A model generated the notes under the pieces. The model made no database searches. It was not told where the DNA came from and saw only the letters and a program-made list of their open reading frames with translations. Positions 1-32,377 of a DNA stretch of 64,000 nucleotides are shown piece by piece. Source of the DNA: a virus. The DNA is taken from positions 55,345 through 119,344 of IMG/VR virus record IMGVR_UViG_3300021424_000003, one strand, 5' to 3'. Made by a program: the position numbers and the translations under genes. Each line of letters starts with the position of its first letter. Positions within the stretch are counted from its first letter, which is position 1.

Positions 1-3000
1 TACTCATCCGAAATATCAAAGCGCGACAAAATAAAAGGTTCCGACAGATTCTCTTCAGGAAAAGCCATTACCCCAGAAGACAGACGCAAAAGAAGACATG
101 CTCCGCTGGGTACAACTGGAGAATTTGACCTTCCAGACGAAGTTGCCACAAGAAATAAGCACGAAGAGTTTGTAGCAGAATTTAGAAAAAACAACGGATT
201 TTGGCTGGATATCCCAAGAGAGGGAACCGTCGCTTCAATGAATACGTCGGAGGAGTGGCAGAGGGCTAGAGAAATAGCAACAAACGTCGGGATTCTTGAG
301 TGGCAGGAAAATGAAAGAAATAGAAGGCCGAAGGGTTTTAGCGAAAAAGCGCGTTCGTCCATGGACTACCTAACATGGTTCGGTGGATATACAAAGCGCC
401 TTGGTGACTATCTCGATAGGGAAGAGTCCAGTGAAAATGTAACCGATGACGAACTTGCTGGTGCAAGGGCGGCAGTACTAGATGCATTGGCATTCAGAAT
501 GGCAACGCCAACTGGTCCAGAAAGCCAAAATACGCTTGCGGCAATGCTCGCAGACGCCGGATTCGGTCCAAATGGAAAACACGAAAAAGCATTCGGTGGG
601 CGCAAGAAATCCAGCGTTGTTGGATTCTCTTCTGGTCGCGGAAACAGAGTAGACACTCGAGTGCTAGACCAACTTATGAACGATGGTAAAGAGGTCAGCG
701 ACGATGACGTGAAGGCAATACTTATGCCTAACGCCGGCATATTGATGCATCCAGAATATAACGACAGAACCGGCGAGGTATCTCTTGGCTGGAAGAACGT
801 CCTAGAATCCTCATTAGAGGACAGGAGTTTCAATAGGGGTTCCCAGAGGGCGATGATTCGCCTTGACGATGAGGGTTATCAAAAATTTACAGAGGCACTA
901 GAAGCAGCAAATGGAGAGCTGACCCCATCGGACGGCCTGCCATCTAGCTCAAGAAGCGTAAGGGACAGGGAATACCCATATTCATGGGGCAAGTCTCGAA
1001 TGGGGGCTTTTTCATCTGGGCGCAAGTATCCACCAGAAATAGAAGACGAGCTTGTATTCGATTCCGAACTGGGCGGCAATAGAGCAGCAGACAGAATCAA
1101 TACCGAAAATGTCGACATGGAGATAGTTCCATCTTCCGATATTGGCCTTGATGGTCCAGATGATGGAGCATGGACTGTTGTCGGCATGTACAGGGGAGAA
1201 GACTATGGCTCCGTCGACTACATCTATGAACTAGATACTTTTGATTCGGTAGAAGAAGCAAGACGCTTCATAGAGACATTTGACAGATTGATAGATGAGG
1301 AAATTAGACCTGGCGACCCAGATTTCTTCCTCGATATAGATAACTACAACAAAGACAACAAAATATCCCTGGATGATGACCTTGACTCCGCTATATCTAA
1401 GGCTGTTCAGTCAAGAAAAGATAGAGAGAACGACCCATACGACTATGGCAGTCTCCTGTCATCAGTTCTTTCCGACAGGTCATTAAACCTTTTTGGTGAT
1501 GGAGAATCAAGATTCTCTTCCGGAAGAAACAAAGCAGAAAGACGCCAATCTGTCAAGAGAGTCATGGCAGAAGATATGGCCGATAGAGAGGTCAATCTAG
1601 GAATACTTTCTCGCCGCATGAAGGGTGAAACCCTGGACGAAGTAGGTAGAGCATACGGAATAGACAGGGGAACAGTCCGCCAAATGGAGATGCGCGAGAT
1701 GAAGCGTCTCAGGGATGGAGCAACACCAAGCGAAATACTTGCCTACAGAATGACAGGCCTCACACTCGACGATATGGGCAGAATGCTCGGCATGTCCCGT
1801 GAAGAGGTTAGAAGAATCGAGTCTAGAGAAATAGCACGGATGAGACTCGGCGGTCGCGACGGAAGCGACGCGATATTCGAGGGTCGTAAAGCTGGTCTAA
1901 GCCGCAATTCAATCAAAAAGCTAACTGGCATGTCTATGGATGACATAGCGACTAAGGAAAGAAAAGGATTTGAGAGGGCCGTAACACGAGAAGATGTCTC
2001 TCATCAGATATTTGACAAATACGTAACTAGATTCGGCGAAGACGAACTAACTGATGCGGAACTTGCGGAGGAGCTAGGGGTTAGCGAAAGAATTGTTTCC
2101 GAAGTTCGCGCGGGGGCAAAGAAAGACATACTCGATGCCCGTCGTGGCATGGACGAACACTACAGCAGCCTTCCGGAGCCAACCGACGAAGAGCTTCAGG
2201 AGATGGCAGACTACTATGCAAATGATTTTGCTAGAGAGCAGGGTTTTGGCTCCTATGCGGAGTATAAGGATTATGTTTCCAGTGTCGGCAGGGAAGACGA
2301 TGGAGAGAGGCTGTCTTCTGGAGCAGGTAAGCGCGACCTTACATTTAGTCAAAAAGTTGGTCAAAGAGTATTTGAGGAAGCAGAAAAGATAGCCAAAGAA
2401 GACAATAGGGACATTTTCGACACCCTGGATTCGCTCGTCTTTGATAAGCGCATGGATTCAACGAATCGTAGAAAAGATTTCGATGTAGCAGAGATGTATT
2501 CTCACATTAATTCCCTTCTTTTCCCAGAGGGTGCTAGAGAAAGCAGGAAGCGCAGACTCTGGAGAAGAGAAAGACTCTCCTCTGGCAGAACCGGTAGAGG
2601 TCGGAAGAATCGGCGACAGGGCAAATCAAATCAGGGAGCATGGTCAGAAGAGGACCTTCAGAGATTCCGCGATAGAAATGTTCTACGCGCCAAAACTCGT
2701 CCCGGAAAGCGCAAGGATGGCCCATCAGCGGAAGAATTCTCTTCTGGACGCAAGAGAATAGATACGGCCGGTAGTTCAGCGCTGACTGGAGCATTCTACG
2801 ATGCCGACAACAAAAGGCTTGTTGTCGGATTCAACAAGGGTGGGGTATATGCCTATGACGGCGTAACCCCAGAAGACATAGAAGAGATGCACAATGCCGA
2901 AAGCAAAGGTGCAGCTATGGCTTCTATCAAGAAGAAGTACAAAGGCGTAAGACTTTCAGAAGCGGACGACAGCTTTAAGGCCACCAAACAGGGTGACGAA

Positions 3001-6000
3001 TGGGTTGTAAATCCAGATAACGAAACGACTTACTCAATATCCGAAGACGGTGGAGAGTTCTTTGTTCTGAGAACTTCTGGAAGCTACGCACGCGATGGCG
3101 GCCAGTCTGGAGATGAGTACTACCATCCAGAGTCGTTTAAGAATATGGACTCCGCGATGAAGTGGGTCGAGCAGGACTTCCTGCCATCAATAACTCCAGA
3201 ACCGTGGGACGAAGATGACTACGATGTAGACAGGCTTTCATCTGGTGGGCCAGCTCGCGCCGCAGCCCAGATGCAATTTGATACTCGTAGAAGTAGAAAA
3301 GCGACAGAAATGACATACGACCCGCAAGACGGTCGTGTTGGAATAACTTATAACGATGGAAAGCAGAGATTCTTCTCCGAGGTGCCTTACGAGGTTGCTA
3401 GGGCGGCAGGCAATCCATCAAAAGATATAGACAACTTCATTGATGACCTAGAGCGCGGGAAAGTGGGCAAGGAGGGCGGAAGATTTAGTTCCGGTGCAAG
3501 CTCGGTGCCTCGCACTGACTTTGATTACTCCTATCAGAAGTTCCCACCGACAGAAGAGCAGGCAGTCATTGCGGATGCGGTGGCGACTGGCGAGAACGTA
3601 ATTGTAAGAGCATTCGCCGGCACTGGCAAAACTTCTACTCTTGTAATGATTGCTGAGAGACTGAAGCGTCAGGACCCAAAGAAGAAAATCGTCTACATGG
3701 CGTTCAACAAGGACATCCAGCTTGAGGCTGAGGGAAAGTTCCCTGGTAATACAGAGTCACGAACAGGCGACTCCATATCGTGGAACTGGGTCAAGCAGAC
3801 AATGGGCGAAGCCTTCACGGACAGAATGAAGGGCAACCCACCAGAAAGAGTGAAGTCAAAGGGAACAAGAAACAAGGATATATCTATTCATTTCAAGATT
3901 AAACAAATGGAGCATCCGGACGGGCTAAAAGATGAGAAAACCGGAAACCCCATAGTCCTTGATGCTGTTGATGTTACAAAGCTTGTAAGAGAAGCGGTTA
4001 AAGAATTCCTTATTTCGGAAGACGATGAGATAGGCACACAGCACTTTAAGAAAATACAGAATGTTCCACCAGCTCTTTTGGGACATGCCAAAGCTATATG
4101 GGATGACATGAACGACCCTGATGGCGTGATGAAATTGGATAACTCCGTATTCACCAAGATGTGGGCACTATCTAGGCCTCAGCTCAGTGACGGTGTCGGT
4201 CTATTCAAAGGAAAGCCATCAGTAATATTCTTTGACGAAGCTCAGGACATAAACCCAGTAATGGCAAAAGTCATGCGGGAACAGAACATCCAAGTTATAT
4301 TTGTTGGAGATAGTTACCAGGCTATTTACGGATTCCGTGGAGCATCGGACAGTCTCGAGAAAGCGGAAGCCACATATGACTTGCCTCTCACTGGGTCATG
4401 GAGATTCGACAGCAAGATAGCTGGATACGCAAACAGATTCCTAGCGTACATGGGTTCAAAAGATAGAATTCGTGGCGTAGGAAAGCCGGGTGATGGTGTT
4501 GTTGAACCAGAGTCGATGGTTGACCCAGATGCAATTCTGACAAGAAGTAACGGTGGGGCGCTACGTGCAGTTGTTGAGCAAATAAAAAACGGAAGAATCG
4601 TAGGGACTTCGGAAAACTTCAAGAAAGACCTAACGAAATTCGCATGGCACGCAATAAGTCTCAAGGCCGATAAGCCAGTAAAAAATCCACATCCAGAACT
4701 AGAGGAATTCTCTTCATGGCAGGAGGTTACAGATGCAGCCAACGCCGAGGATGCAAGCCCTCGACTAAGAATGCTTGTACAGCTATTCAATGACACACCA
4801 AACATTATCGAGATACTGGACCAAGTCGTTGTCGGTGGCAAGCTCAGGGGGGAATCTGGTGGAGGCTCCGGCAAGAGGATTCTTCCTAGCGAAGTAACAG
4901 ATGGCTTTGAGATGTCCATAGACCCAAGCAGTCTGGGTAAATGGGCAGGAGACAAAAAGACATCCGTTTTGTACAAAAATGGAAAACTGTTCTTTCAGTT
5001 GCCATACACAGCAAAAGGCTCATCTGGTGATGACAGCAAAAAGAGCTGGATTAAAGAAAACTTAGGAAAAATCAATCGCTTTGAGTATGGCAAGCCAGAA
5101 GAGACTGGCGGCAAGTTTGCAGTATTCGTAGACGCAACACCAGAACAGGCTGCAAAACTTCTCTCCGGAATAACATCGGGTGATGCTCAGGAAGTAGACG
5201 TCATGGTAATGACGGCACACAGGTCAAAGGGTCTTGAGTTCGGAAAAGTTCAGCTTTACGGAGACTTCCCAAGACCAAGAAAGAACAAGAATACCGGTGA
5301 GATGGAGTACCCAGCTCCGGAAGAGCAAAGACTTCAGTACGTTGCATCAACTAGGGCCATACGCGAACTAGACCCAGGCCCAACTTCATGGATATATAAC
5401 GAAACATCTGAAGATGACGAAAGCCCAGGCGTACCTAGTGGTTTCTCGTCTGGCGCAAAAGGTAACCCAATGCCGAGCGCCATTGGTAAGGACATGGTTC
5501 TAGAAGACGGCGGCACATACGAAGACAACATGTTTAGGGGCACGTACGTTGCCGACTTTAATGGCGGGAAGATGGTAATCCAGCCGGCAGGCAGGGATTC
5601 GTGGGCTGTTTACAGGGCAGACTTTATGGGCGGCGAAGATGGGCCTTCTTACAACTTCAGCTATGGTCCACCAACGGACGAGTCTGAGTTCAGTTCACTC
5701 GCAGACGCATACGAGCATGTTCTCAATTATGTAAAAGACAACGACATAACGCTTGACCAGATGGATGGAAGTCGCCGCTCAAAGGGGAGTGAGTCCTTCT
5801 CGGTGGCAAAAATCGGAAACTCCGGTTCTGGAATATCTGAAAGATTTAGCTCAGGTCGCAAGAATGCCGATAAAAGATTAAAGGCAGCTAGAAAATTTTC
5901 AAGGGGGGGAGATGCCGATGATGATGGTCGTCTGTCTTCTGGAAAGAGAGATTCTGACGAAGGGTTCGCATCGGGCCGAATACTGTCTCGACTTCGCGGC

Positions 6001-9000
6001 CGAGAAGAAACCACTCAGAAAGAAGCAGATGAACTCTATAAATGGGCGGCGGAAGCAAGCAAGAAGCGTCCCGACGACGAATACTTGAGTCGCGTTGTTG
6101 GTAAGGGCTCAGAATACGGAGAAGGTCTAGACGAAAAAGACTTCGAATACATACGCCAACAACAGCTCATTGATTTTATAGTCGATAACGACCTGCACCT
6201 ACGCGACCCGGAAGGAGCTGGTCGAATATTAGATATATGGACCGGTGAAAGCCGGGGAAGAATTAAAGATAAAGACTGGGAGGCCCTGTCGGAACTCCGA
6301 TACCGGCGCCAACAGAGAGAGGACGACGCATTTAATCGTGAAGCATTAAAGGACGTTGCCGAATCGCAAGGCATGCCACGTGACGACCAGCAAAAACTTG
6401 CCATTTTTGCGTGGGCGGCTTCTCGATTTGGGAAATATCCACTGGTAGAAGACGTCGTGAGAGGTGGGAGAACAAACATCCCAAACAGCCTCGACGACAG
6501 AGAATGGAAATTTCTTAAAACCGAATGGCTCAACAGCGACGCTCCAGACCCACAACCACTCAACACTAGAATGACCAATGGTGACATGGGCCCAGATAGG
6601 TATCTAGAACAAGACTATCTAGCGTACATGCGCGAGAGCGGTATGACCGGCTTGCTGGAAAAGTACCAGACGCGAGGTGGACTGACCGGCAAAGATTGGG
6701 CTTATGTAAAGAAGTTACACGACGACCTTGGCCCAAGGGGATGGCGAAATCCAAAGAGTGCCTCATACAGGGGAATAACTAGAAAAGAAAGAAGGGAAAT
6801 TGACAAAAAAACTGGACGCCTGAGTGATTGGGATGTTCTGACCGAGGCACAAAGAGCTTCACTAGAGAAGCGCAAGGAAAAATTCAACCTTACAGAATCA
6901 ATGGCCAACGCGCTTTCTTCAGGCCGTACCACCCCGAATAAGCCCAAACAGGATGATGGTCGTTTGTCTTCTGGCGGTGACCCTACTCCTGAACAGATTG
7001 AAGCGGAAGACAGAGAAAATAGGGCTGACTTCTACAAGAACAGCTCTGGTCTTTATGAAAATGAACTTGCCGAATGGCTGGATGCAAATCCAAGCAAGAC
7101 AGAAAAAGACTATGAGTCAAGCCCTGAATTTGCAGAGAGACTTGACGATATGGACAGCATCATGGGCGATTTCGCCGATGCTGAGGCAGAACGTCGTCTA
7201 GATGATTATGCAAATCGCATGTCGTCCGGGGGAAAGCCACCCCGTTATCCACGACCCCCCACGCTCGGAGCGTTTCTCGGTTCTACGGATGACTTATTCA
7301 AAAATGTAGATTCATGGGAAGATTTCAGGAATATATACAACGACCAAGAAATCATATTTTTTGATTACGAAACTACCGGTTTAGTATTTGATGAATTCGG
7401 CAGAGCGACTAGCAACGGAGCACCAGTTCAGTTTGGTGCAGTAAAAATTAAAAACGGCAAAGAAATAGGCCGAATAAACCTATTCATGAACCCCGGCGAG
7501 TCGCTCGGAGAATGGTCGCGAAACAATCTCAAAGACATAGACGGAAATCCACTAACAGATGACTGGCTTGGTGGACAGATTTCCGTTGAAGATGCTCACA
7601 AACAGCTAATCGAGTTCGCTGGGGCTGATGCAATATTCGGAGTTCAAAATGCAACGTTTGATAAAGCTGTTTTGGACGATGTGTTATCAAAAATGAAATC
7701 GGACTGGAGGCCGTCAGGCTACATAGATACACGAGAGCTCGCAAGCCTTGTGCTCCCCAGATGGACACCAGAAACAGAAGATGGGCCATTTCAGACAAAC
7801 AAAGATGGTGAAAAGGTCCCTTCCTCAAGTCTTGCCGCAATTACTGAATATCTTGACGTTGAGCTTGGAGATGGCCACCACAACGCAGATGTTGATGCTT
7901 TCGCAGCAAGCGAAGTAATGAGAAAAATGATTGATGGGGCAATCGAAAATGATTGGTCGCGAGATGCCCTATCAAAAGAAAAACGTGATTCTCGTCATGC
8001 GGAAACGATTGCAAAATTTGAAGAGAGCGTTCGGCAATTTGAGTCAGAATTAAGCCAGTATGGTCTATCTTCTGGGCGCCGCCAGCGGCCATCTGATGAG
8101 GAGATTTATAACCTCAGAATGTCTGGCCCAACCCTAGAGGAAGTCGGGGAGAAGTATGGAATGACGCGCCAAGAAGTGCGCGCTGCAGAAATGCGCCATA
8201 TCAGGAAAATGCGTGATGCCGACTTTGAGGCAACTGGGGCACAGACATCTAGAAGAGAGCGTCGTCTATCTTCTGGAGGGAGACCCACACGCGCCGGTTC
8301 AGCAAAACAAAGAGGGAAAGTAGTCCTCACAAGCCAAGAACCAGGCGGTAAGTGGACTGACGTACCAGAAAACCAACTAAGTCGAAAAGACGATTTCTTT
8401 GACAATGAAACAGCTTCAAGAATATTGGATAACCCACTAGAGAATTACAACGACCAAACCGGCTGGCCAGTAGCTGCTAGGGATTTCTTCCAAAGCCTAG
8501 TTTTGCAGCAAGAAGGAAGAGACATTCCTGTAATGGATGAAGATGGAAGGTTCACGCCTGAAGGACGCAACCAAGTCAAGAAGATGCTTTTCGGCTCTAA
8601 TGAAGCAAGGGAAAAATTCCTAGACCAAATAGAGTCAGGCGATGTATCTCATATGCAGGCCGTTGCGGCTATCACAATTCTCGAAAAGCTTGGCGACGAT
8701 AATACAAAACTGGGCCCAAGGGGTGCTTCAGACCACATGTTGGAAACATTTGGGTTTAAGTCTGCACCAGTCTGGGTTTCTGGCCTGGATTCAAGAGACC
8801 CCGACTACGACCTTATAAGAGGAGAGGTCAACTGGACTCCGTTGTCCGAAGAGCAGTGGCTTGATGAGGTCAAGCAGGCGTATGTTGATAACAAAAACAT
8901 AACCAACTATGTTGGAAATAGAAGAGATTGGGTTACAAAGAATAAGGGCAAGTCTGAAAAAGACTACGAATCAAGTCCTGAATTCATCGCAGACGCTAAG

Positions 9001-12000
9001 CGCGCATACTTGGAGAACAAGAACACCATTGGTCCTGCAGAAGTCTACTCTCACCCATTCACACATTTCTATGGGATGCGTGAAGAGCAAAAAGATACAG
9101 TCAAGAAGAATTGGCTTTCCCAGAACCCTGGCAAAACAGACGCTGATTACGACAAAGCAATGTCGTGGGACGGAGAGGGTGACCCTGACAAGTCAACGGA
9201 AGCTGGAAGTTGGGGATTTGGAGACCCACGCAGTCTTGGTGGGAAACCATCTACACAGGCAGATGGTGCTTCTAGTAAGAGGCCGACTTCAGCACGGGGT
9301 ACGACTAAGAGGCCGACTTCAGCACGGGGTACGACTACTTCTTCATTGCCGCCGGAAACGACACAGAAGCTATTCCAAGCCATAAAGCTCGATACGATTC
9401 TGTCGGCGCTTGGTATAAAAGACGATGTTACCAGAGAAGAACAAAGAAAGAAGCTTTCTGAACTTATTGGATTTACGATAACGGAGGACTCATTCAAGGG
9501 CTACAAGCGCACGGGTCCGAGGCCAAGAATTATTCTGGAACTTCTACGCAGGGGTCACATTAAGGACCTAGATTCGCTACGCGAAGCCGACAGGACAGAT
9601 GCAAACCTGGGGAACCTTGTCAATCAAGCAAGAGACTCAGTTTTCATTGCTACCGCATACGGAAGACTGCGTGAAGCAGCAAGAGGTGCTGGTTTGTCTG
9701 AGGATTCATTTGGAGCAAGGCTTTGGGGGAGACTCGGGAAAGAATACGAAGACCATGTTATTAATGGTAAGGGGCAGCCAAGAAGCAGGATGGCTGACGG
9801 TGCAATTCCAAAAACGTTTAACCTAAGCAAACTAGACCTTATTGGGGAAACGGAACTGTCAGAACTTGTTGACGGCCTAAATGCAATGGCTGAATCAGAG
9901 GGCTCTTCTGCTCGGTTTACGATTGACGATATATTCCCCAAGAACGATAGAGGTTACATCGATGCATTCGGTGAATCAAAGATAAGAATGAGCAGCGGAA
10001 AACCATCTACGCAAAAGGGACAGAGATTCGTTGCCAAGCCTAAGGGGAATAGGCTAACCAGTGCTGCAAATGACACTGCTGAAATGAGATTCTCCTCGGC
10101 GGCTAGACCAACGTACAGAACACCTGGCGGAGGAATCGACAAAGATGCAATGTCTGCAGATATTGAAGATGCGATTCGCGGTCCTCGACTTGGCGCTGTT
10201 GCAATAACTTCTGCAAATGCAGAAACGGTCGGCAGAGAGCAAGTAGATAATCTCACTAGAGCCATAACTCTTCGTCAGCACATAGCAGACATGTTCCCAA
10301 GCGTTGTTAACGATAGAACACAGGTCTCCTACGATATAGAGCCTCTCCTGACGGAGCAAGGCATAAGTCCAAAAGATGCAGAAAAACTGACAGACCTAGT
10401 TAACGACCTAGATGAATACATCGACGGGATAGTTAAGCAGTTCGAGGACGAGGGTGACAAGCTAGAAAGCGGTCTGCGCGAAATGACAGACATGCTCGAC
10501 GAGGTATCTGAGCTACGTAAGTATCGCAAAGAGACAATCGACAAGTATGGCGAAGATGACGCAAGAAACTTGATAGACAGACTTGACGAAAAGATAAATA
10601 AACTTACGACATCAATTGATGACAAGTATCAGGCTACCATAGGTAGCAACAGAACAAACATGGCAAAACTTCGCGATGAAGCGCTTGCCTTGGTTGACGA
10701 AAATCCAGGGTTTGACAGGCCAAAGAAGGGCGGCGACAAGCCGCGCCTATCAAGCGGCGCCAACTCCCTGTCGTCGAAGCTGATAGGCATTGAAATGGCC
10801 ATGGGCCGAGCCGAAGAAGGCGGTCTACCTAAATACAAGCCGGTCAGCAAGATGGACATGAACCTTCCAAACGGAACGCGCCTGTCTTCTGGCAAGGCTG
10901 ACGAATGGTACGAGAACCTGACAGCGAAGCTTGTAGAGCAGATTGAAAAGATTCAGGCATCGGGCGGGGACAAGTGGGAATTCCCATGGCATCGAACTGG
11001 GGCCATGCCGAAGAACGCAATCAGCGGCCACGTTTTCTCTGGTATGAACCCATTTGTCCTGTTGCTTGCTGCTGATGAAAAGGGTTACTCAACACACCGC
11101 TGGGCTACATACAAGCAGTGGCAGAGCGTGGGTGGAAATGTAATGAAGAACGAAAAGGGCCAGACACTCCTGAAGCCAGTTTTCAAGAAGGTTAAGGACC
11201 CAGACACAGGTAAAGAAGAGACAAAGCTTGTCAACTGGAGCGCATATACCGTGTTCAACGTTGCCCAGGTGGAGGGAATAAATCCAGAAGATTACGACGA
11301 CAAGCCCAAAGACCTTCTTGATGAGGCAGCCAGAGTGGAGAGGGCCGAAAAAGCATTCGCCATAGTCGGTGCAGACATAGAAACCGGAGATGGCTCACGT
11401 GCTTACTACAGCCCGTCAAACGATAAGATAGTTATGCCGCCGTTTGCTTACTTCAAGACCCCAGAGGGCTACTACGCGACCCTTGGCCATGAGCTTGTTC
11501 ACTGGACTGGACACTCCTCCAGACTTGATAGGCCAAACATGAACCGCTTCGGCACCCCTGCATACGCTCGGGAGGAATTGGTTGCAGAGCTTGGCTCGGC
11601 TTTCTTGATGGCCAATTTCGGCATGGCTGCAGAGCCACGAGAAGACCACGCTCACTACCTGGCCAACTGGCTAAAGGTTTTGCGCGAGGAGCCAAAGGCC
11701 CTACAAGAAGCAGCAAGAGAGGCCCAAAAGGCGTCGAAGCTTCTCATCGAAAAGATGAGGGAAGTGCTTGAGGGTGCCGAAGTAGCCGAAGAAACGCTTG
11801 ATGATGTTGACGGGACGAAGAGCGCATGGGTCGGAATGTCTGACGACATTGGGAGAGAATCACTGCTCCAGGTTGCAGGCATTCTTCCCGCATACCTACG
11901 CATGGAGGTGGAAGCGGCCATTAAAAGCACCGCCCCAGGGGGACCCCTATCAACTAAGGTTATTAACAGAATTTCAAAAACAATTGAACTTCTAGAGACA

Positions 12001-12024
12001 TTCTCAAAGCAAAAAGGTATTTGA
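1..12024 (+). CDS. Giant multidomain polyvalent polyprotein (5'-truncated, >4007 aa): sigma70-R4-like HTHs, 2 KTSC, UvrD/SF1 helicase, DEDDh exonuclease, ArdC
   Basis: Frame is open from base 1 (YSSEISKRDKIKGSDRFSSG...), so ATG 238 is not the true start. Motifs: AFAGTGKT/FFDEAQD/GDSYQAIYGFRGA/TAHRSKGLEF/YVASTRA (SF1 helicase, ~3541-5400); FFDYETTG..NATFD..HNADVDA (DEDDh, ~7351-7930); PW..N..SG..FSGMN..W.TYKQW..VFNVAQ + HELVHWTGH..EELVAE (ArdC, ~10900-11760); KTSC ~2749-2950 and ~3270-3460. Confidence 0.9.
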   Translation, partial: YSSEISKRDKIKGSDRFSSGKAITPEDRRKRRHAPLGTTGEFDLPDEVATRNKHEEFVAEFRKNNGFWLDIPREGTVASMNTSEEWQRAREIATNVGILEWQENERNRRPKGFSEKARSSMDYLTWFGGYTKRLGDYLDREESSENVTDDELAGARAAVLDALAFRMATPTGPESQNTLAAMLADAGFGPNGKHEKAFGGRKKSSVVGFSSGRGNRVDTRVLDQLMNDGKEVSDDDVKAILMPNAGILMHPEYNDRTGEVSLGWKNVLESSLEDRSFNRGSQRAMIRLDDEGYQKFTEALEAANGELTPSDGLPSSSRSVRDREYPYSWGKSRMGAFSSGRKYPPEIEDELVFDSELGGNRAADRINTENVDMEIVPSSDIGLDGPDDGAWTVVGMYRGEDYGSVDYIYELDTFDSVEEARRFIETFDRLIDEEIRPGDPDFFLDIDNYNKDNKISLDDDLDSAISKAVQSRKDRENDPYDYGSLLSSVLSDRSLNLFGDGESRFSSGRNKAERRQSVKRVMAEDMADREVNLGILSRRMKGETLDEVGRAYGIDRGTVRQMEMREMKRLRDGATPSEILAYRMTGLTLDDMGRMLGMSREEVRRIESREIARMRLGGRDGSDAIFEGRKAGLSRNSIKKLTGMSMDDIATKERKGFERAVTREDVSHQIFDKYVTRFGEDELTDAELAEELGVSERIVSEVRAGAKKDILDARRGMDEHYSSLPEPTDEELQEMADYYANDFAREQGFGSYAEYKDYVSSVGREDDGERLSSGAGKRDLTFSQKVGQRVFEEAEKIAKEDNRDIFDTLDSLVFDKRMDSTNRRKDFDVAEMYSHINSLLFPEGARESRKRRLWRRERLSSGRTGRGRKNRRQGKSNQGAWSEEDLQRFRDRNVLRAKTRPGKRKDGPSAEEFSSGRKRIDTAGSSALTGAFYDADNKRLVVGFNKGGVYAYDGVTPEDIEEMHNAESKGAAMASIKKKYKGVRLSEADDSFKATKQGDEWVVNPDNETTYSISEDGGEFFVLRTSGSYARDGGQSGDEYYHPESFKNMDSAMKWVEQDFLPSITPEPWDEDDYDVDRLSSGGPARAAAQMQFDTRRSRKATEMTYDPQDGRVGITYNDGKQRFFSEVPYEVARAAGNPSKDIDNFIDDLERGKVGKEGGRFSSGASSVPRTDFDYSYQKFPPTEEQAVIADAVATGENVIVRAFAGTGKTSTLVMIAERLKRQDPKKKIVYMAFNKDIQLEAEGKFPGNTESRTGDSISWNWVKQTMGEAFTDRMKGNPPERVKSKGTRNKDISIHFKIKQMEHPDGLKDEKTGNPIVLDAVDVTKLVREAVKEFLISEDDEIGTQHFKKIQNVPPALLGHAKAIWDDMNDPDGVMKLDNSVFTKMWALSRPQLSDGVGLFKGKPSVIFFDEAQDINPVMAKVMREQNIQVIFVGDSYQAIYGFRGASDSLEKAEATYDLPLTGSWRFDSKIAGYANRFLAYMGSKDRIRGVGKPGDGVVEPESMVDPDAILTRSNGGALRAVVEQIKNGRIVGTSENFKKDLTKFAWHAISLKADKPVKNPHPELEEFSSWQEVTDAANAEDASPRLRMLVQLFNDTPNIIEILDQVVVGGKLRGESGGGSGKRILPSEVTDGFEMSIDPSSLGKWAGDKKTSVLYKNGKLFFQLPYTAKGSSGDDSKKSWIKENLGKINRFEYGKPEETGGKFAVFVDATPEQAAKLLSGITSGDAQEVDVMVMTAHRSKGLEFGKVQLYGDFPRPRKNKNTGEMEYPAPEEQRLQYVASTRAIRELDPGPTSWIYNETSEDDESPGVPSGFSSGAKGNPMPSAIGKDMVLEDGGTYEDNMFRGTYVADFNGGKMVIQPAGRDSWAVYRADFMGGEDGPSYNFSYGPPTDESEFSSLADAYEHVLNYVKDNDITLDQMDGSRRSKGSESFSVAKIGNSGSGISERFSSGRKNADKRLKAARKFSRGGDADDDGRLSSGKRDSDEGFASGRILSRLRGREETTQKEADELYKWAAEASKKRPDDEYLSRVVGKGSEYGEGLDEKDFEYIRQQQLIDFIVDNDLHLRDPEGAGRILDIWTGESRGRIKDKDWEALSELRYRRQQREDDAFNREALKDVAESQGMPRDDQQKLAIFAWAASRFGKYPLVEDVVRGGRTNIPNSLDDREWKFLKTEWLNSDAPDPQPLNTRMTNGDMGPDRYLEQDYLAYMRESGMTGLLEKYQTRGGLTGKDWAYVKKLHDDLGPRGWRNPKSASYRGITRKERREIDKKTGRLSDWDVLTEAQRASLEKRKEKFNLTESMANALSSGRTTPNKPKQDDGRLSSGGDPTPEQIEAEDRENRADFYKNSSGLYENELAEWLDANPSKTEKDYESSPEFAERLDDMDSIMGDFADAEAERRLDDYANRMSSGGKPPRYPRPPTLGAFLGSTDDLFKNVDSWEDFRNIYNDQEIIFFDYETTGLVFDEFGRATSNGAPVQFGAVKIKNGKEIGRINLFMNPGESLGEWSRNNLKDIDGNPLTDDWLGGQISVEDAHKQLIEFAGADAIFGVQNATFDKAVLDDVLSKMKSDWRPSGYIDTRELASLVLPRWTPETEDGPFQTNKDGEKVPSSSLAAITEYLDVELGDGHHNADVDAFAASEVMRKMIDGAIENDWSRDALSKEKRDSRHAETIAKFEESVRQFESELSQYGLSSGRRQRPSDEEIYNLRMSGPTLEEVGEKYGMTRQEVRAAEMRHIRKMRDADFEATGAQTSRRERRLSSGGRPTRAGSAKQRGKVVLTSQEPGGKWTDVPENQLSRKDDFFDNETASRILDNPLENYNDQTGWPVAARDFFQSLVLQQEGRDIPVMDEDGRFTPEGRNQVKKMLFGSNEAREKFLDQIESGDVSHMQAVAAITILEKLGDDNTKLGPRGASDHMLETFGFKSAPVWVSGLDSRDPDYDLIRGEVNWTPLSEEQWLDEVKQAYVDNKNITNYVGNRRDWVTKNKGKSEKDYESSPEFIADAKRAYLENKNTIGPAEVYSHPFTHFYGMREEQKDTVKKNWLSQNPGKTDADYDKAMSWDGEGDPDKSTEAGSWGFGDPRSLGGKPSTQADGASSKRPTSARGTTKRPTSARGTTTSSLPPETTQKLFQAIKLDTILSALGIKDDVTREEQRKKLSELIGFTITEDSFKGYKRTGPRPRIILELLRRGHIKDLDSLREADRTDANLGNLVNQARDSVFIATAYGRLREAARGAGLSEDSFGARLWGRLGKEYEDHVINGKGQPRSRMADGAIPKTFNLSKLDLIGETELSELVDGLNAMAESEGSSARFTIDDIFPKNDRGYIDAFGESKIRMSSGKPSTQKGQRFVAKPKGNRLTSAANDTAEMRFSSAARPTYRTPGGGIDKDAMSADIEDAIRGPRLGAVAITSANAETVGREQVDNLTRAITLRQHIADMFPSVVNDRTQVSYDIEPLLTEQGISPKDAEKLTDLVNDLDEYIDGIVKQFEDEGDKLESGLREMTDMLDEVSELRKYRKETIDKYGEDDARNLIDRLDEKINKLTTSIDDKYQATIGSNRTNMAKLRDEALALVDENPGFDRPKKGGDKPRLSSGANSLSSKLIGIEMAMGRAEEGGLPKYKPVSKMDMNLPNGTRLSSGKADEWYENLTAKLVEQIEKIQASGGDKWEFPWHRTGAMPKNAISGHVFSGMNPFVLLLAADEKGYSTHRWATYKQWQSVGGNVMKNEKGQTLLKPVFKKVKDPDTGKEETKLVNWSAYTVFNVAQVEGINPEDYDDKPKDLLDEAARVERAEKAFAIVGADIETGDGSRAYYSPSNDKIVMPPFAYFKTPEGYYATLGHELVHWTGHSSRLDRPNMNRFGTPAYAREELVAELGSAFLMANFGMAAEPREDHAHYLANWLKVLREEPKALQEAAREAQKASKLLIEKMREVLEGAEVAEETLDDVDGTKSAWVGMSDDIGRESLLQVAGILPAYLRMEVEAAIKSTAPGGPLSTKVINRISKTIELLETFSKQKGI
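9276..9337 (+). repeat. 30-bp tandem duplication inside the polyprotein (KRPTSARGTT x2)
   Basis: TAAGAGGCCGACTTCAGCACGGGGTACGAC occurs twice, exactly. Confidence 0.95.
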
Positions 12025-12111: not shown

Positions 12112-13689
12112 ATGGACAAAGAAATGCAGAACACTCTCAGTGTTGACGTCGACGGGAATGTACTTAAGTGCGCGAAGGGTGCCGACGTCTCTGCCTGCGG
12201 CTTCGAGGCCGACTCGAAAATATGCGGTAAATGCGGCGCTATTCCTGTTCAGGCCAAAATTGTACCAGTAGATGAAGAGATGCCAGAGGACGAGGAAGCA
12301 CAAGACGAGAAAGCATCTGAAGAGGAGTTGCCCGAGAACGAGGAAGACGAAGAAATGGACTCCGAAGAGGAAAAAATGATGGGTTCGTATAACCCTCCGT
12401 CCAAACTTCGTCGGAAACCCGCCAAGGGGATGCGTACCGACGGAGATATGTCGGAAGACGTAATGGAAGAGGAAGACGACTCTGAAGACGAGGAGTCGAT
12501 GAACGAGGAAAAGTACTCCTACTACAAGAAGTACGGCTTTGATAGGTATGTAAAGAAATATGGCAAGAAGCCTTGGGCTCCCGACATGGAGGACGAGGAA
12601 GAGGACATGGAAGAGGAAATGTCCAAGAAAGAAATGAACGAAGAGGACATGTCGGAGGATGACATGGACGAAGATGCCATGGACGACGAAGAGGACATGC
12701 AGTACGACGAAGATGAAGAGGAAGACGAAGACGAAGACGAAGACGAAGAGGATATGAAAGGCGCTATGGACCGTGCGTATAAGCGCCGCCTACAGACAAT
12801 GGGCATCAAATCAGCCGATATTGGCTCCTCCGGATATCTTTGCGCTCTTGACAGAAAGGCATATGCGGGACATATTCCCGTGTGTGACAACTGTGAGGGC
12901 GGTTGCGCTTCAGAAAAAGGTATGCCTGGTCTTATTCACGCCGAGGGAATGGCCGAAGAGATTATTGACGGCGTAACCGTGGCTTCTGGCTATTCAGTTC
13001 TTAACGATTTATTTGTCGTTGATGTTCAAAAGAAGTCGGGCAAGACATACGAGGTTTTCTACGAGGCTTCGACCGGGGAGCTACTGGGCTTCCATAAACT
13101 TGAGGACACCCTTAGTATCAAGTCAGCACTTGATGACCTGAGAGTAATTACTATGTTTGAGGCTGCTGATATTGCCGTAAAGGCGATTGACGGTCACGTA
13201 ATTGCGGTTGAGGGAGATTCATTCGAGGGAATAGATGCGTTTGCAGTAGAGGTTGACGGCTTTGATGGCAAATCATATGACGTTTTCGTTTCACTGGACG
13301 GCGAATTGCTTGGATATGACAAGTACGAGATGGATGAGGCTGAGGAAATTGAAGCAGAGGCTGCCGAAATTGCTTTGAAGCGCGCATTTAGCGATGATAA
13401 GAGACAGGCGATGGCCAAAGAGGGCACGGCAATGCCGGATGGTTCCTACCCAATAGCGGGTGAGGAAGACCTCAAGAATGCAATCCAGGCGTTTGGTCGA
13501 GCCAAAGATAAAGAAGCAACCAAGCGCCACATCATGAAGAGAGCTAAGGAAATGGGCAAAGAAAGCCTGATTCCTACAAACTGGGTGATGGGCGGAGACT
13601 CTGAGAAGAAGTCCTCTGAAGTTGACGCAGAGCTAATGGCATCGCTAATTGAGTTCGAGCTTCTTCAGGCCGAAACAGAAATCAACTAA
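12112..13689 (+). CDS. Acidic head-associated protein with Cys clusters, PepSY-like repeats and a C-terminal DUF6582-like domain
   Basis: AGGAGA RBS; long D/E/M tract; 'FEAADIAVKAIDGHVIAVE...YDVFVSLDGELLG' is PepSY-like; 'AMPDGSYPI..EDLKNAIQAFGRAK..KRHIMKRAKEMG'. Confidence 0.65.
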   Translation: MDKEMQNTLSVDVDGNVLKCAKGADVSACGFEADSKICGKCGAIPVQAKIVPVDEEMPEDEEAQDEKASEEELPENEEDEEMDSEEEKMMGSYNPPSKLRRKPAKGMRTDGDMSEDVMEEEDDSEDEESMNEEKYSYYKKYGFDRYVKKYGKKPWAPDMEDEEEDMEEEMSKKEMNEEDMSEDDMDEDAMDDEEDMQYDEDEEEDEDEDEDEEDMKGAMDRAYKRRLQTMGIKSADIGSSGYLCALDRKAYAGHIPVCDNCEGGCASEKGMPGLIHAEGMAEEIIDGVTVASGYSVLNDLFVVDVQKKSGKTYEVFYEASTGELLGFHKLEDTLSIKSALDDLRVITMFEAADIAVKAIDGHVIAVEGDSFEGIDAFAVEVDGFDGKSYDVFVSLDGELLGYDKYEMDEAEEIEAEAAEIALKRAFSDDKRQAMAKEGTAMPDGSYPIAGEEDLKNAIQAFGRAKDKEATKRHIMKRAKEMGKESLIPTNWVMGGDSEKKSSEVDAELMASLIEFELLQAETEIN

Positions 13690-13705
13690 AGAAAGCGGAC
13701 CCCAA

Positions 13706-16700
13706 ATGGCGGGTACGTTTACGCACAAGACGAGAACACTTGTTTCTCCACGTTTTGTATCTCCACTTGCAGGAAGAAAAAACTTTATAGAGTCTGCTCA
13801 ATCGTTCAGACTCTCGATTGGTGCCTCTTCAAAAACACTCACTCTTGACCCGGACTATGCAGTCAAGGCTGCTATGGCTGGTGGTATGGCCCTGCCCGGC
13901 CAAACTGACGATAAGAAGCGGGAGAATAAGGGGGGGCCGCCGGGAATGAAGCATGAGGTCGACGGTTACAGGTTGATGCCTAACGAAACTGCTGGCCCGG
14001 GAAAAGTTCTTCGTTTATTTCCATCATTTGAATCAAGGAATTCAGCGAAGATGGAGCCCAACTTCGGCTTTCTGCCAAAATCTAAACCAGTTTCCGTGGA
14101 GGAAATGAAGCGAAAGCTTGCAGAATCTCCGCTTATTCGCATGGAGAAGTATCAAATAAATCCAAGAAACGGAGAAAAAATAGAGGGTTCAGAGAAACTG
14201 ATGGACCCACTGTACTTCAATAGGGAACTAGATAGAGACAGAAATCCAGACCTCGATGGCATCGAAGGTAAAAGTCTTGGTGACTCGATAGGCAAAATCG
14301 CTCGCGGGAATAGCCTCATTGGCAGAGTTGCGCAGGGTATAGGTGTGGTCTTTGACGAATTAGGTAAAATGAGATGTCCTCCGGGCACTCCAGCCGCTAA
14401 CCAATTTACTGACGCAAACGGTTCTAACTGCTTCGGCGTGAGCCTCCCGAAGCTTGTTGGCAAACTTGTTGAACTAGCTAGGGAAGCCGCGCCAGAGGGT
14501 GAAGAAAGAAGAAGCGCAAAAAGTCTCCAAAAGAGAATTGCCAATTTTATATTTGACTTCGATAACAGCAGATTCGGCAGAGTTTCGTGGTATGACGAAA
14601 ACGGCAAGCGAATGGGTTTCGGCGAGTACAGAAAGTACCGCGACAAGGGCGGGGTTGCAGAGGGCGAGCGCTGGTTCGTCAATGCAATGGTTCGAGCCGA
14701 GGAGGAGTTTAGACGTCAAGGCGAAAGAGTAAGGGAGCTCCAGGAAAGGCTAGGAATAGATTCCTCTGATGCCAAAAGAGCAACAAACGCAGACCTCGTA
14801 GAGACAATCGACAAACTCCGAGAAAATGGGGTCATTAATACAAGACTAAAAAACAGAGATACTCCCGACATTGTCGAGGCAAGAATCAGGGCTCGACTGG
14901 AAGCTGACCCAACATACAAGTCCTTGTCAAGAGAGGATAAAGAGATTCTTGTTAAGGGTGACATAGCTAGGTATTACGAGACAGAAAGAGCCTCACTCGA
15001 GGCGTTCATAGACGAGGTAATCAAAAACCCGGAGCACATAAAGGACGTAATTGACTCCATCAGTTATGTCAATGGTAGAGATGAGGACGACGGAGCTTTC
15101 TCTATAGGAGGAATAGTTGGCGGAGAAAAGCTTTTAGGGAACATAGACCTAGATATAACCCACATGATGGGCAGACAAGAAAGCGAAATGCCCAATCTTA
15201 AAACGAATGAGCGCTTAAGAATATATGCAGAAGGTGGAAAAACTGAAGCAGAGAGAGTTGCACATCTGCACGACTTTTTAGTTAACTCAAATGCTTTTGC
15301 CACCAATATGGCATGCATGGTTGAGGGGCCTTCTGGCATAGGTCGCCATACGATGAAGCACGAAATAGCGCACTCAATACAAGCCAAAGCACTTCACGAA
15401 TACGTTAAGAACATGCTTGCTACTGGTGGAAGCATCAAGATTGGAAGAAGGGAAATAACCGACCCGTCAAAGCTCACGGCCGGAGATATACTCAAAATAA
15501 TGCGGGGGGAGACAAGCGTTCCTCTCGACGCAATTAAGGGCCTCCAGACCAGGGGTGAAGCAGTCTCCTTCCTGGCTGGAAGATATATATGGGAAGCAAA
15601 CCCAGAAGGCACGTCAAGCCGCTCGATGGAGATAGGCGCGGAGCTATGGGCTCTCAGAAGCCTTGGTCTTATTTTTGGAGATGACGTAGACGCCGCACTT
15701 GAGTACATGGACGACTTCGCCTATGGAAAAACTTTCTCAGATAGGGCCGCATCTGACGCTGATGCCATTAGAGCGGTGGCTGATTCCTATTATGACGCCG
15801 GTAGCAGAATAGCTAGAGATAGGGCTGAAAGAGTAAAAGAGCGCTATATAGAGGCCAAGAATGACGAGATAAAGCGTCTAAAAGAGCGTGCAAAAACGAT
15901 GTCAGAAGACGACATTATCGACATGCTTCTCACTCTGAACGAAGACCTCAATGTGATGGATGAGGCGCTTGAAGGGTCTGACGAGACTGCAGACTCACTG
16001 TGGCGCGAGGTAGCGGATAGAGACGCCGCAATAAGAATGATTCACGAACTGACAAAGGCTTGGGCCAAGAGGTTTACCGTCTTGCCATCACGTGAGGCAA
16101 TGGAAAGGCTCGAAGAGCTTCTTGCCGACAAGATGGCAGATAGGGGAACTCTTCCTCCTGACAAGGTTAAAGAGCGCGCAGAGGCAGTTTTCATGGAGAC
16201 CATCAGGACCGATGCCTCGTCTATGTCCATGGACGACCTGGTCAATGCATTCGTAGACGCTGAGCTTTCTAGGAAAGCGGAAGGCTTGTCTACCGAAGAG
16301 CGCGATGTCCTAAAGAAAATGGCAGGAATATATAGGGACGAGTACATAAAGAGAAGAACATCCGGAGTTGACTCAGTTGACAGAGAGGATGCTGTAAAAG
16401 AGCTAAAGGGAAAACTCAAGGAAAAATCAAAGCCAGAAACTATCGGTGGAGATGAAAGTGGTGGTTTTTCCGGAACAGGGCCAAAGAAGAAAAAGCCAGC
16501 AAAGAAATTTGACTCCCATAATGGGAAAAATGGTGCGCGCACTCATGCAATAAGCGAAAGAGAAAAACTTCTCGAGCAGGCAACTGCCGCCGAAAGGGAT
16601 GCTCTCGTTGAGATGGGCGACGCTGAAAACGACACCGGGAAACTCCTAGACCCAGAAACTGTCATGGGGGCAATTGCTGCCATAGCCAGAAGACGCAGAA

Positions 16701-26095: not shown

Positions 26096-27427
26096 ATGTC
26101 GCAAGACAAATCAAGAATCGATGAGCTCCAAGCAGCTCTCCGTCAGAAAATGTCAGACAACAAGGCAATCGCCGACTCCTTCAGAATCGAAGACGGCGCT
26201 GTTGTTGTTTCTGCTGAGCAGAAGTCAGCGTTCGACAAGAACATGGCCGACATCAAGGAAATCAAGAGCCTAATCTCTGGACTTGAGGACATGTCGCAGG
26301 TTACTGCGTGGTCAGCAGAGCCACAAGAGACAGTTTCCGGTGCATTTGCTGCCGCGCAAAGCGAAATGCAGCAACTCACATCACGCGAAATCAAGACCAT
26401 CGGTGAGATGTTCCTTGATTCACCAGAGTTCAAGTCACTGAACAATGGTCGTAATGGCGCAAACATGTCCGCTCCGTGGCAGGCTGGCGTTTCGCTGACC
26501 GGCTATAACGTCAAGGATGTCTTCTCGGCACTGCCGACTGGCACCCCTGGTTCATTCGGCACAATCCAGCGTGACCCGATGGTTACTCCTCCAATGCGCA
26601 CAAAGCGTGTTCGCGACCTGTTCCCAGTTCGCACCACGACCGCAGCGGTTATCGAGTACTTCCGTCAGCTCGGCTTCACTACCATTTCGGGGGGCGGCAC
26701 AAACAATGCTGCCGCAGTCGCTGAAAGAACCGGCGCCGCTTTTGCACTTAAGCCGCAGTCGTCGTTCCAGTTCGTTGGTGAGCAGGCTCCAGTTCGCACC
26801 CTTGCGCACTGGGAGGCAGCACACCGCAACGTTCTGGCTGATGAACCGCAGCTGCGTTCAATCATCGACAACGAGCTGATGTACGGTCTACGTCTCCTTG
26901 AGGACTCGCAAATTCTCAACGGCAGCGGCACCGGCGAGAACCTGACTGGTGTTCTTCAGACCTCAGGCATCCAGGAGTACGACTGGTCAGACGGTGCGTC
27001 AACTCCGGTTGCAGACACGAAAGCTGACGCTCTGCGTCGCGCGGCGACACTGTCGTTCCTCGCGTACTACGAGCCAACCGGCATCGTTCTTCACCCGAAC
27101 GACTGGGAAGACATCGAGCTAGCCAAGGATGCCAACGGCCAGTACCTCATCGCGGTTTCGGTCGCGTTGGGTGGCGAGCCGAAGGTTTGGCGTATGCCAA
27201 TCGTCGACACTCCGGCCATGACCGAGGGCACGGCTCTCGTCGGCGCCTTCGGCACCGGCGCTCAGCTGTACGACCGCGAGCAGGCAAGCATCCGAATCTC
27301 AGAGCAGCACTCGGACTTCTTCGTCCGTAACGCCATCGTCATCCTCGCGGAGCAAAGACTGGCACTCGCCGTCAAGCGCCCAGAGGCTTTCGTTAAGGTG
27401 ACGTTCGACGAGGCACCTGGGGCCTGA
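26096..27427 (+). CDS. Major capsid protein, HK97 fold
   Basis: N-terminal coiled-coil delta domain; VRDLF, AAVAE..KPQS, TLAHW, ILNGSGTGENLTG, LHPNDW..KDANGQY, F.RN..ILAEQRLALAVKRPEAF; strongly C-ending codons; GAGG RBS. Confidence 0.95.
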   Translation: MSQDKSRIDELQAALRQKMSDNKAIADSFRIEDGAVVVSAEQKSAFDKNMADIKEIKSLISGLEDMSQVTAWSAEPQETVSGAFAAAQSEMQQLTSREIKTIGEMFLDSPEFKSLNNGRNGANMSAPWQAGVSLTGYNVKDVFSALPTGTPGSFGTIQRDPMVTPPMRTKRVRDLFPVRTTTAAVIEYFRQLGFTTISGGGTNNAAAVAERTGAAFALKPQSSFQFVGEQAPVRTLAHWEAAHRNVLADEPQLRSIIDNELMYGLRLLEDSQILNGSGTGENLTGVLQTSGIQEYDWSDGASTPVADTKADALRRAATLSFLAYYEPTGIVLHPNDWEDIELAKDANGQYLIAVSVALGGEPKVWRMPIVDTPAMTEGTALVGAFGTGAQLYDREQASIRISEQHSDFFVRNAIVILAEQRLALAVKRPEAFVKVTFDEAPGA

Positions 27428-32360: not shown

Positions 32361-32377
32361 TGGATAATTATACAGTA

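Follow-up and report, generated by a model that had tools for sequence, protein, structure and literature searches.

Lineage-specific serine motifs delimit exchangeable modules in giant, protease-headed polyvalent proteins of uncultured phages

We analyzed a stretch of 64,000 nucleotides (nt; hereafter the window), which is the 3' 64 kb of the 119,344-bp virus record IMGVR_UViG_3300021424_000003 from IMG/VR (positions 55,345 to 119,344; completeness estimate 79%), and in it a gene for a giant protein that is punctuated by 20 copies of the short motif [FLM]SSG. The full protein of 4736 amino acids (aa) qualifies as a polyvalent protein as defined by Iyer, Burroughs, Anand, de Souza, and Aravind 2017 (PMC5512222), but it is headed by a capsid maturation protease. 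The motifs lie at the boundaries of its modules, related phages exchange these modules between motifs, and more distant lineages carry a different recurring peptide at similar spacing. The reading we lean towards, with somewhat better than even confidence, is that the motifs are processing sites, which the S78 protease encoded in cis would cut to release packaged and ejected effectors. That the motifs are cleaved by a protease of whatever kind appears fairly probable, and we infer virion packaging and the identity of the protease from sequence and genomic context.

Reading frame 1 of the window is free of stops from position 1 to 12,024 and encodes 4007 residues. The first-pass annotation had described this open frame, which stands as such, except that it is incomplete at the 5' end of the window: the gene starts 2187 nt earlier and covers 53158-67368 of the record. 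The first 745 aa of the full protein contain zero copies of [FLM]SSG. The protein and its Pfam-supported domains are as follows, with aa positions referring to the window translation (P0001) unless stated otherwise:

1..12024, + strand: C-terminal 4007 aa of the 4736-aa protease-led polyvalent protein; the S78 domain (aa 28-172 of the full protein) lies outside the window
1603..1830, + strand: Sigma70_r4/helix-turn-helix (HTH) repeats (aa 535-610)
2773..2922, + strand: KTSC domain (aa 925-974)
3553..5370, + strand: UvrD/SF1 helicase module (aa 1185-1790)
7354..7917, + strand: DEDDh/RNase_T exonuclease module (aa 2452-2639)
10906..11256, + strand: ArdC-N single-stranded DNA-binding domain (PF08401, 8.3e-24; aa 3636-3752)
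11338..11718, + strand: MPTase-PolyVal zincin metallopeptidase (PF18818, 2e-44; aa 3780-3906), with HELVH intact

Sigma70_r4, KTSC, UvrD, RNase_T, ArdC-N, and MPTase-PolyVal thus reside within one 4736-aa open reading frame (ORF), as in polyvalent proteins, and ArdC-N is followed by the MPTase with its HExxH motif, which is the architecture of ArdC. Within HELVH, residues H500, E501, and H504 are invariant in 31 sequences. The portal gene (PF04860, 1.5e-46) lies directly upstream of the protease-led gene, and the gene for the major capsid protein (MCP; PF05065, 2.4e-43) is found about 14 kb downstream in the same strand block. This order of portal, protease-led gene, and MCP recurs in the four sufficiently complete records: the present one (G000) and three further whole records used for comparison (G002, G003, and G005; an additional record, G004, was included in the search for PF18818). 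The first-pass classification as a polyvalent head-module protein is therefore well founded, as six effector families share one chain whose gene lies between those for portal and MCP. Delivery of the protein into the recipient cell together with the DNA may be expected from its context, i.e., the head-module position, the fusion to a prohead protease, and a depletion of cysteine. The 4007 residues of the window contain 0 cysteines and the full 4736 aa contain 3. Across the four genomes, cysteine accounts for 0-0.18% of residues in motif-bearing giant and tape measure proteins, compared to 0.95-1.25% in ORFs of <1000 aa, which is a common signature of proteins that probably leave the virion.

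A regular-expression count gave exactly 20 copies of [FLM]SSG in the 4007 aa, 14 of them with Arg just before the motif, while 5000 composition-preserving shuffles of the same residues yielded a mean of 0.29 and a maximum of 3. All copies were located by regular expression, and copies 18 to 20 also in the AlphaFold2 (AF2) model described below:

49..60, + strand: motif copy 1, R-FSSG-K; the first copy, right behind the conserved N-terminal region
625..636, + strand: motif copy 2, G-FSSG-R
1009..1020, + strand: motif copy 3, A-FSSG-R
1513..1524, + strand: motif copy 4, R-FSSG-R; ahead of the HTH cluster
2311..2322, + strand: motif copy 5, R-LSSG-A
2575..2586, + strand: motif copy 6, R-LSSG-R; opens a very basic 54-aa module
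2737..2748, + strand: motif copy 7, E-FSSG-R; ahead of KTSC
3235..3246, + strand: motif copy 8, R-LSSG-G
3484..3495, + strand: motif copy 9, R-FSSG-A; ahead of the helicase
5443..5454, + strand: motif copy 10, G-FSSG-A; behind the helicase
5845..5856, + strand: motif copy 11, R-FSSG-R
5932..5943, + strand: motif copy 12, R-LSSG-K
6913..6924, + strand: motif copy 13, A-LSSG-R
6964..6975, + strand: motif copy 14, R-LSSG-G
7219..7230, + strand: motif copy 15, R-MSSG-G; ahead of the exonuclease
8065..8076, + strand: motif copy 16, G-LSSG-R
8266..8277, + strand: motif copy 17, R-LSSG-G
9988..9999, + strand: motif copy 18, R-MSSG-K
10747..10758, + strand: motif copy 19, R-LSSG-A; in a low-confidence coil
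10882..10893, + strand: motif copy 20, R-LSSG-K; closes a 22-residue coil right before the first ArdC-N helix

These 20 copies and the frequent preceding Arg had been reported in the first-pass annotation, which also proposed the comparison with shuffled sequence, and we could reproduce both observations and obtained the enrichment; its coordinates denote the residue before the motif, so that each [FLM] codon lies 3 nt further on. The translation also contains the two variants it had listed, namely FASG (nt 5962) and FSSA (nt 10087). Its statement that serine codons vary freely also holds, with 19 distinct 12-nt strings over the 20 sites and both TCN and AGY codons in use. Since nearly every site is coded differently and both serine codon families occur, the motif is conserved at the protein level. 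In the whole record, 25 of 27 copies are confined to the 4736-aa protein, a second giant protein of 2213 aa, and the tape measure protein:

13649..20290, + strand: second giant head-module ORF, 2213 aa, without a Pfam or PHROG family
Record 31964-36931, - strand: tape measure gene, upstream of the window, with two [FLM]SSG copies, at around aa 39 and 682

The consensus of the 25 sites in these three proteins reads polar/Gly-rich, R (19/25), [L12 F10 M3], S, S, G, [R/A/K/G], [K/R], with four invariant core residues and variable flanks. Some copies are spaced just 17-45 aa apart. Within the 2213-aa ORF, R-[FM]SSG occurs three times, at aa 1457, 1592, and 1811 (nt 18017, 18422, and 19079), all in the last third. 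As a side observation, only the first approximately 290 aa of this ORF are conserved (about 30%) in other lineages.

The motifs had further been proposed to sit at module boundaries with none inside a module, and this is what we found: 0 of the 20 sites fall inside the six Pfam-covered stretches, which comprise 1164 of the 4007 aa (chance P=0.001). The 24-residue flanks are polar, with a hydrophobic fraction of 0.165 vs 0.267, and have a higher disorder score on the TOP-IDP scale (0.207 vs 0.123); the observed value was attained by 0 of 10,000 random site sets. In an AF2 model of the last 677 aa, with a mean predicted local distance difference test (pLDDT) score of 71 and mostly 70-90 in the ArdC-MPTase part, four sites (model residues 1-3, 34-37, the latter being FSSA, 253-256, and 298-301) are located in or at the edge of low-confidence coil, and the site at model residues 298-301 directly precedes the first ArdC-N helix. 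Standalone ArdC-MPTase proteins from unrelated phages offer a natural comparison: their N-terminus lies 2-6 residues before the point at which the alignment with the last module begins, the alignment starts a few residues past RLSSG, and the last module begins approximately 5 aa before the N-terminal point of the standalone proteins. A cut at the last RLSSG would free a product much like a natural free-standing ArdC-MPTase protein.

The exchange of domains between conserved motifs, which the first-pass annotation had suggested looking for in homologues, is evident from a search in which the protein was split at the motifs into 21 modules that were searched against its relatives. In the relative at locus L007, the first 760 aa of which are 81% identical, every common module starts and stops at a motif; this relative has an additional unit of 51 aa between two motifs and lacks modules 11-13 and 15, among them the exonuclease. 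Other relatives show an altered module order; e.g., the 54-aa module 6 is placed behind the helicase, not ahead of it, and is still bracketed by motifs to the residue. For 119 giant homologues, considering only targets with at least 6 copies and excluding module 0, we counted how often a module edge in SSG-class relatives is no more than 3 aa away from a motif. This was the case for 108 of 155 N-terminal edges (5 of 155 at random) and 70 of 107 C-terminal edges (2 of 107 at random), with some built-in help from the SSG that opens each query module. Homologues therefore swap, gain, and lose domains exactly between motifs. Module 6 itself (window 2578-2739) is a very basic 54-aa peptide between two motifs, which is conserved in 53 SSG-class relatives at variable positions in the chain; it could be a DNA-condensing or core peptide that is freed by processing.

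To place the protein among its relatives, we used 313 pattern-matched stretches from IMG/VR, 301 of which encode a relative of the N-terminal 760 aa; 80 of these loci were retained. At 19 of the 80 loci, all of them close relatives with at least 56% identity, the protease-led ORF carries 2-18 copies of [FLM]SSG; at four more close loci, the ORF is truncated or broken ahead of the first site, and the 57 distant loci have 0 or 1 copies. A large protein collection contains at least 197 giant relatives of 2604-8288 aa, all of them metagenomic, for which the sole name is 'HK97 family phage prohead protease'. The giant form was not found in 50,697 deposited phage records; among the 95 that match, none covers 80% or more of the first 520 aa. 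The nearest cultured capsids (approximately 48% identity) belong to actinobacteriophages, namely Brevibacterium phage Cantare and the Gordonia Chidieberevirus group.

An unsupervised k-mer scan revealed that the distant relatives carry their own recurring peptide at similar spacing: G-[MFL]-R-S-R-S-G, G-F-A-S-[ST]-S, G-L-A-S-[TS]-S, G-L-R-S, G-F-S-S-S-T, or S-S-R-S-[KR]-[RK]. In 109 of 120 giant homologues, at least 5 copies of one class are found past residue 450 (SSG in 85, xRS in 11, xAS in 8, SRS in 5; none in 11). When all called ORFs of the four records were compared to the shuffle mean, each genome was enriched for its own variant, with 27 copies of [FLM]SSG (3.2 by shuffle) in G000, 29 of G[FLM]AS (2.6) in G003, 18 of SSRS.[RK] (0.1) in G002, and 10 of G[FLM]SS[ST] (0.23) as well as 16 of G[FLM]AS (2.35) in G005, and the variants of the other genomes remained at background level. 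The own variant is carried by 3 large ORFs in G000, 6 in G003, 6 in G002, and 3 in G005, nearly all of them located between portal and MCP, and by the tape measure protein in G000 and G003. In all four genomes, one motif is thus common to several giant head-module proteins, as in the cargo of head proteases. Moreover, the ArdC-MPTase module, which is bracketed by RLSSG in G000, belongs to another giant protein in G002, where SSRS brackets it at aa 1526 and 1875. Between genomes using different variants, the capsid proteins share 72-78% identity. One variant in unlinked genes of a genome and another in those of its sister genomes is what would be expected of a trans-acting, phage-encoded recognition, and such lineage-specific variants are hard to explain by a passive linker. 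Giant ORFs also occur outside the portal-capsid interval, at L093:9355-18690 in G003 (3112 aa, 10 own-motif copies) and at L108:9560-19225 in G005 (3222 aa, 4 copies). For these two ORFs, only NUDIX, DUF3626, and DUF2510 were matched, with NUDIX and DUF3626 in the 3112-aa ORF.

A candidate for such a trans-acting factor heads the chain itself. Residues 28-172 of the full protein match PF04586 (E-value 6e-10; 39.9 bits vs a cut-off of 21) and phrog_80, 'head maturation protease' (3e-25). None of the 46 distinct relatives deviates at H66 (VWGHNW), S130 (EWSIGY), or H162, and H66 and S130 fall within the blocks that hold H65 and S114 of HK97 gp4 (alignment A3), with an offset of a few columns by MAFFT; we take H65 and S114 to be the catalytic pair of that enzyme. 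The S78 protease domain thus looks active. When aa 1-746 were modeled with AF2 from a 33-row alignment (mean pLDDT 60), the protease occupied approximately aa 25-160 (10-residue block means of about 60-83) and was followed by two small alpha/beta domains (aa 265-325 and 375-458), an extended disordered region, and a confident helical hairpin at aa 650-741 that ends 5 residues ahead of motif copy 1. A Foldseek search of the model against the PDB returned 0 matches at E-values of 0.001 or below; the weak rows include herpesvirus proteases (1o6e, 0.066; 1at3, 0.093; also 4cx8, 8bq1, and 5v5e). A complex prediction that paired aa 176-746 of the N-terminal region with the delta region of the MCP (aa 1-160) returned no verdict (score 0.00) and was given no weight either way. 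PF18818 was not found in three of five motif-bearing records (G003, G005, and G004, with estimated completeness of 88, 79, and 47%) and was found in two, which leaves S78 as the only protease found in all.

We propose the following course of events, which would account for these observations. An S78 (assemblin-like) domain and a conserved region of approximately 500-750 aa are followed by about 20 independent effector modules (sigma-like HTHs, KTSC, UvrD helicase, DEDDh exonuclease, ArdC-N with zincin, and many of unknown function), with x-R-[FLM]-S-S-G-[RKAG] in a disordered linker at each junction. The protease and N-terminal end would bring the chain into the prohead, as with HK97 gp4. After assembly, the protease would cut every motif, most likely as [FLM]-S/S-G. 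A cut before the +2 Ser is suggested because every variant has that Ser, by analogy with HK97 gp5 and assemblin; its presence follows partly from the construction of the class patterns, yet it is found in each of the top-enriched tripeptides. HK97 gp5 is cut at K/S and herpesvirus assemblin sites are cut at A/S. The freed modules would remain in the head and be ejected with the DNA as a ready kit for anti-defense and takeover. Presence of the same code on other giant head-module proteins and within the N-terminal approximately 39 aa of the tape measure protein would make it a genome-wide signal for virion-leaving proteins.

One of the observations on the protease hints at how specificity might be set. 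At position 53, all 85 SSG-class and all 8 xAS-class proteins have Lys, whereas Glu is found in all 5 SRS-class proteins and in 9 of the 11 proteins of the xRS class. This charge swap tracks Arg at motif position +1 and is confounded by phylogeny, making it a weak lead. A bolder extension, which we offer tentatively and consider rather doubtful as a whole, is that the motifs form a lineage-programmable punctuation code of 4-6 residues that co-evolves with the fused protease (K53/E53 being a candidate determinant) and marks every virion-leaving protein, head cargo and tape measure alike, so that any module flanked by the signal would be packaged and released in a plug-and-play manner. If true, this would explain the fast turnover of anti-defense cassettes between near-identical phages.

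Several points weigh against cleavage by the S78 protease. The first concerns the MCP, for which the following features are relevant:

26096..27427, + strand: HK97-fold MCP (Pfam), 443 aa, with an N-terminal delta-like region of approximately 140 aa
26513..26527, + strand: K-D-V-F-S (MCP aa 140-144), candidate site of delta-domain maturation, located through its distance from the conserved core

For the placement of this site we also used K103/S104 of HK97, presumably the position of the cut there; the position is thus based on spacing, and MAFFT aligns the region differently. Each of the five lineages compared has KDV[FY]S[AG]LP at this site, irrespective of its cargo motif, and the site and the motif have only [FY]-S in common; [FLM]SSG itself was not found in the MCP. 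We therefore rejected a covarying MCP maturation site, and the lack of covariation counts against the simplest protease model. Gordonia phage ChisanaKitsune, a distant cultured relative, has KDVFSSG at the candidate MCP site. When this phage and Cantare were scanned for the motif, neither showed enrichment, and the sole in-frame copy in a structural gene was the one at the MCP boundary of ChisanaKitsune. Second, the S78 domain is 75-94% identical across lineages with differing motifs, which leaves little room for altered specificity. Third, all relatives were recruited via the protease region, so that the universality of S78 is partly a selection effect, and the Foldseek matches to herpesvirus proteases are weak (E-values of 0.07-0.5). 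Fourth, the zincin peptidase is present in cis in 75 of the 83 homologues (of 120) whose top-enriched tripeptide derives from [FLM]SSG. Finally, the motif is found in the tape measure protein, a tail component that should be outside the reach of a prohead-confined protease. At the homologous tape measure site (around aa 39), RLSSG is found in G000, GLASST in G005, GLATT in G003, and ARSLG in G002, i.e., only two of the four (G000 and G005) carry their own motif canonically, and ARSLG is a remote variant at best. The tape measure copies could be reconciled with cleavage if the N-terminus of that protein, presumably head-proximal, were accessible from the head, if cutting occurred after ejection, or if a different enzyme were responsible.

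An explanation that would accommodate some of these points is that the motif is never cut and instead serves as a short linear motif, e.g., as a peptide for docking to, or packing against, the capsid interior or DNA, as a hand-hold for a chaperone or for ejection, or as a modification site, given that R-x-S-S resembles the site of a basophilic kinase. Strict conservation within disordered linkers, presence in a tape measure protein that is ejected yet not matured in the head, and the MCP site that does not covary are all compatible with this idea, and the shared cysteine depletion points to a common physical fate and not specifically to cleavage. However, docking peptides are normally terminal and occur once per cargo, whereas the present motif occurs at about 20 internal positions, on either side of units that correspond to standalone proteins elsewhere. 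Furthermore, copies only 17-45 aa apart, a protease domain at the head of the motif-bearing chain, and Pfam and PHROG scans of the head module that identified no kinase or modifying enzyme argue against an uncut motif, which we regard as unlikely overall. The first-pass annotation had offered a cleavage code and a docking code as alternatives. The former is favored over the latter, in the form of trans-acting recognition or cleavage, by the S78 head, the lineage variants, and the tape measure copies, and an encapsulin-like docking peptide fits poorly with about 20 internal copies in a single chain and with further copies in a tail protein.

Alternatively, the motifs might be cut by another enzyme, either the C-terminal MPTase-PolyVal zincin, acting in the head or after ejection, or a host protease. 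The MPTase has an intact HELVH and resides at the C-terminus of the same chain, its frequent presence in cis among SSG-type homologues (see above) is in its favor, and cutting after ejection would account for the motif in the tape measure protein, which is likewise ejected. In addition, Iyer et al. argue that the MPTase frees the domains of polyvalent proteins (PMC5512222). On the other hand, PF18818 was found in just two of the five motif-bearing records, which, considering that these records are incomplete, weakens the MPTase as a universal protease without eliminating it, and the MPTase is missing in cis from 11 of 11 xRS-class and 5 of 5 SRS-class giant proteins. A host protease is hard to square with four variants among phages whose capsid proteins are 72-78% identical. 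Taken together, we consider cleavage by an enzyme other than S78 to be quite improbable. An autocatalytic cleavage at Ser by an N-to-O acyl shift was set aside, as the sites are in disordered linkers and not in a folded self-processing domain. Lastly, the motif could be a by-product of gene assembly, i.e., a linker cassette that was copied along with the modules and lacks a recognition function, which agrees with modules being shuffled, gained, and lost at the motif points, but is very hard to believe given 19 different codings over 20 sites, with serine codons from both families (leaving no shared DNA for recombination), four invariant core residues between variable flanks, and unlinked genes that have the same variant in one genome and another in related genomes.

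The remaining head-module genes provide little functional information. For the ORFs of 525, 2213, 382, 148, 212, 682, and 243 aa, a Pfam scan yielded no family, and a PHROG scan yielded only phrog_6439 (unknown function) on the 212-aa ORF. Just upstream of the capsid gene, a 245-aa DUF3721 protein (window 25218-25955) is free-standing in G000 and homologous to part of motif-bearing giants of 2741 aa in G002, 806 aa in G003, and 1087 aa in G005, which suggests fusion or fission of head-module genes between lineages. Right behind the capsid gene, a 417-aa protein with DUF6321 and DUF5872 (window 27574-28827) is followed by a 136-aa staphylococcal-nuclease homologue (window 28824-29234). In G002, a 33-aa stretch that is 50% identical to MCP residues 139-170, where the candidate maturation site lies (G002:C1:96080-96178; L087/L091), was found inside a 1448-aa ORF just downstream of the capsid gene. 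Toward the end of the window (52000-64000), the last approximately 10 kb are richer in G+C (0.57-0.60) than the structural region (approximately 0.47) and contain numerous short ORFs in either orientation.

The working parts of polyvalent proteins presumably arise by cutting after delivery, but a cleavage signal is not known to have been defined for them; the family described here offers an explicit and abundant candidate site, along with natural specificity variants and a candidate protease in cis. The motif also allows the limits of about 20 modules in each protein, mostly of unknown function, to be drawn from sequence across hundreds of uncultured phages. If the processing proposed here is true, a single chain of 4.7 thousand residues would load about 20 effectors into a capsid at fixed stoichiometry, counter-defense cassettes could be exchanged without re-evolving packaging signals, and a design principle for the loading of foreign proteins into HK97-type shells would be at hand.

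The closest known counterparts each share part of this system. As in polyvalent proteins, unrelated effector domains (ArdC-N with MPTase-PolyVal, helicase, nuclease, HTH) are combined in one giant protein of the virion region. For those proteins, embedded peptidases were proposed to release the domains, an analogy to RNA-virus polyproteins was drawn, and the assemblin-like peptidase was said to be always C-terminal (PMC5512222). Unlike the polyvalent proteins described in its main text, the protein analyzed here has its protease at the N-terminus and carries a lineage-specific motif that is common to other virion proteins. The same main text names no cleavage motif, and 'SSG' and 'linker' have 0 occurrences each. 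The first-pass annotation had regarded the motif as undescribed, which agrees with our literature search (including PMC5512222 and PMC7824862), in which neither the motif nor a polyvalent protein with an N-terminal prohead protease was found; this search covered the main text of PMC5512222, the supplements of which might list such architectures.

A prohead protease that cuts many head-internal, ejected proteins at one motif is established for T4, phiKZ, and SPN3US, and SPN3US-type phages contain a large mass of ejection proteins (PMC5694885, PMC7411985, PMC10052503). In those phages, the cargos are separate gene products with their own propeptides and the protease is a separate enzyme of the T4 gp21 type, whereas here one chain is led by S78. 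As to specificity, T4 gp21 cuts internal proteins after L/I-x-E, and phiKZ gp175 and SPN3US gp245 cut inner-body and ejection proteins after S/A/G-x-E. In contrast to these Glu-based motifs, the motif here is Ser-based, varies between lineages, and is also found in the tape measure protein, and the cargo motif does not recur at the candidate maturation site of the MCP itself, which would be expected for processing of the T4 gp21 or phiKZ gp175 kind. The likeness to HK97 gp4 includes the PF04586 match, equivalent His and Ser blocks, a gene between portal and MCP, and a delta-like region in the MCP; in the known sites of both HK97 gp4 and herpesvirus assemblin, Ser occupies P1', like the +2 Ser of the variants. 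However, HK97 gp4 has 225 aa and digests itself and the delta domain to small peptides that leave the shell, whereas here approximately 4,000 aa of modules follow the protease. Encapsulin loading peptides likewise are short conserved peptides on the cargo of an HK97-fold shell, but they are terminal and present once per cargo, unlike the motifs described here, of which each chain has about 20 at internal positions around exchangeable modules, with further copies in a tail protein. What is new here is a widespread uncultured family whose cargo chain starts with a protease and whose exchangeable modules are set apart by a lineage-specific signal.

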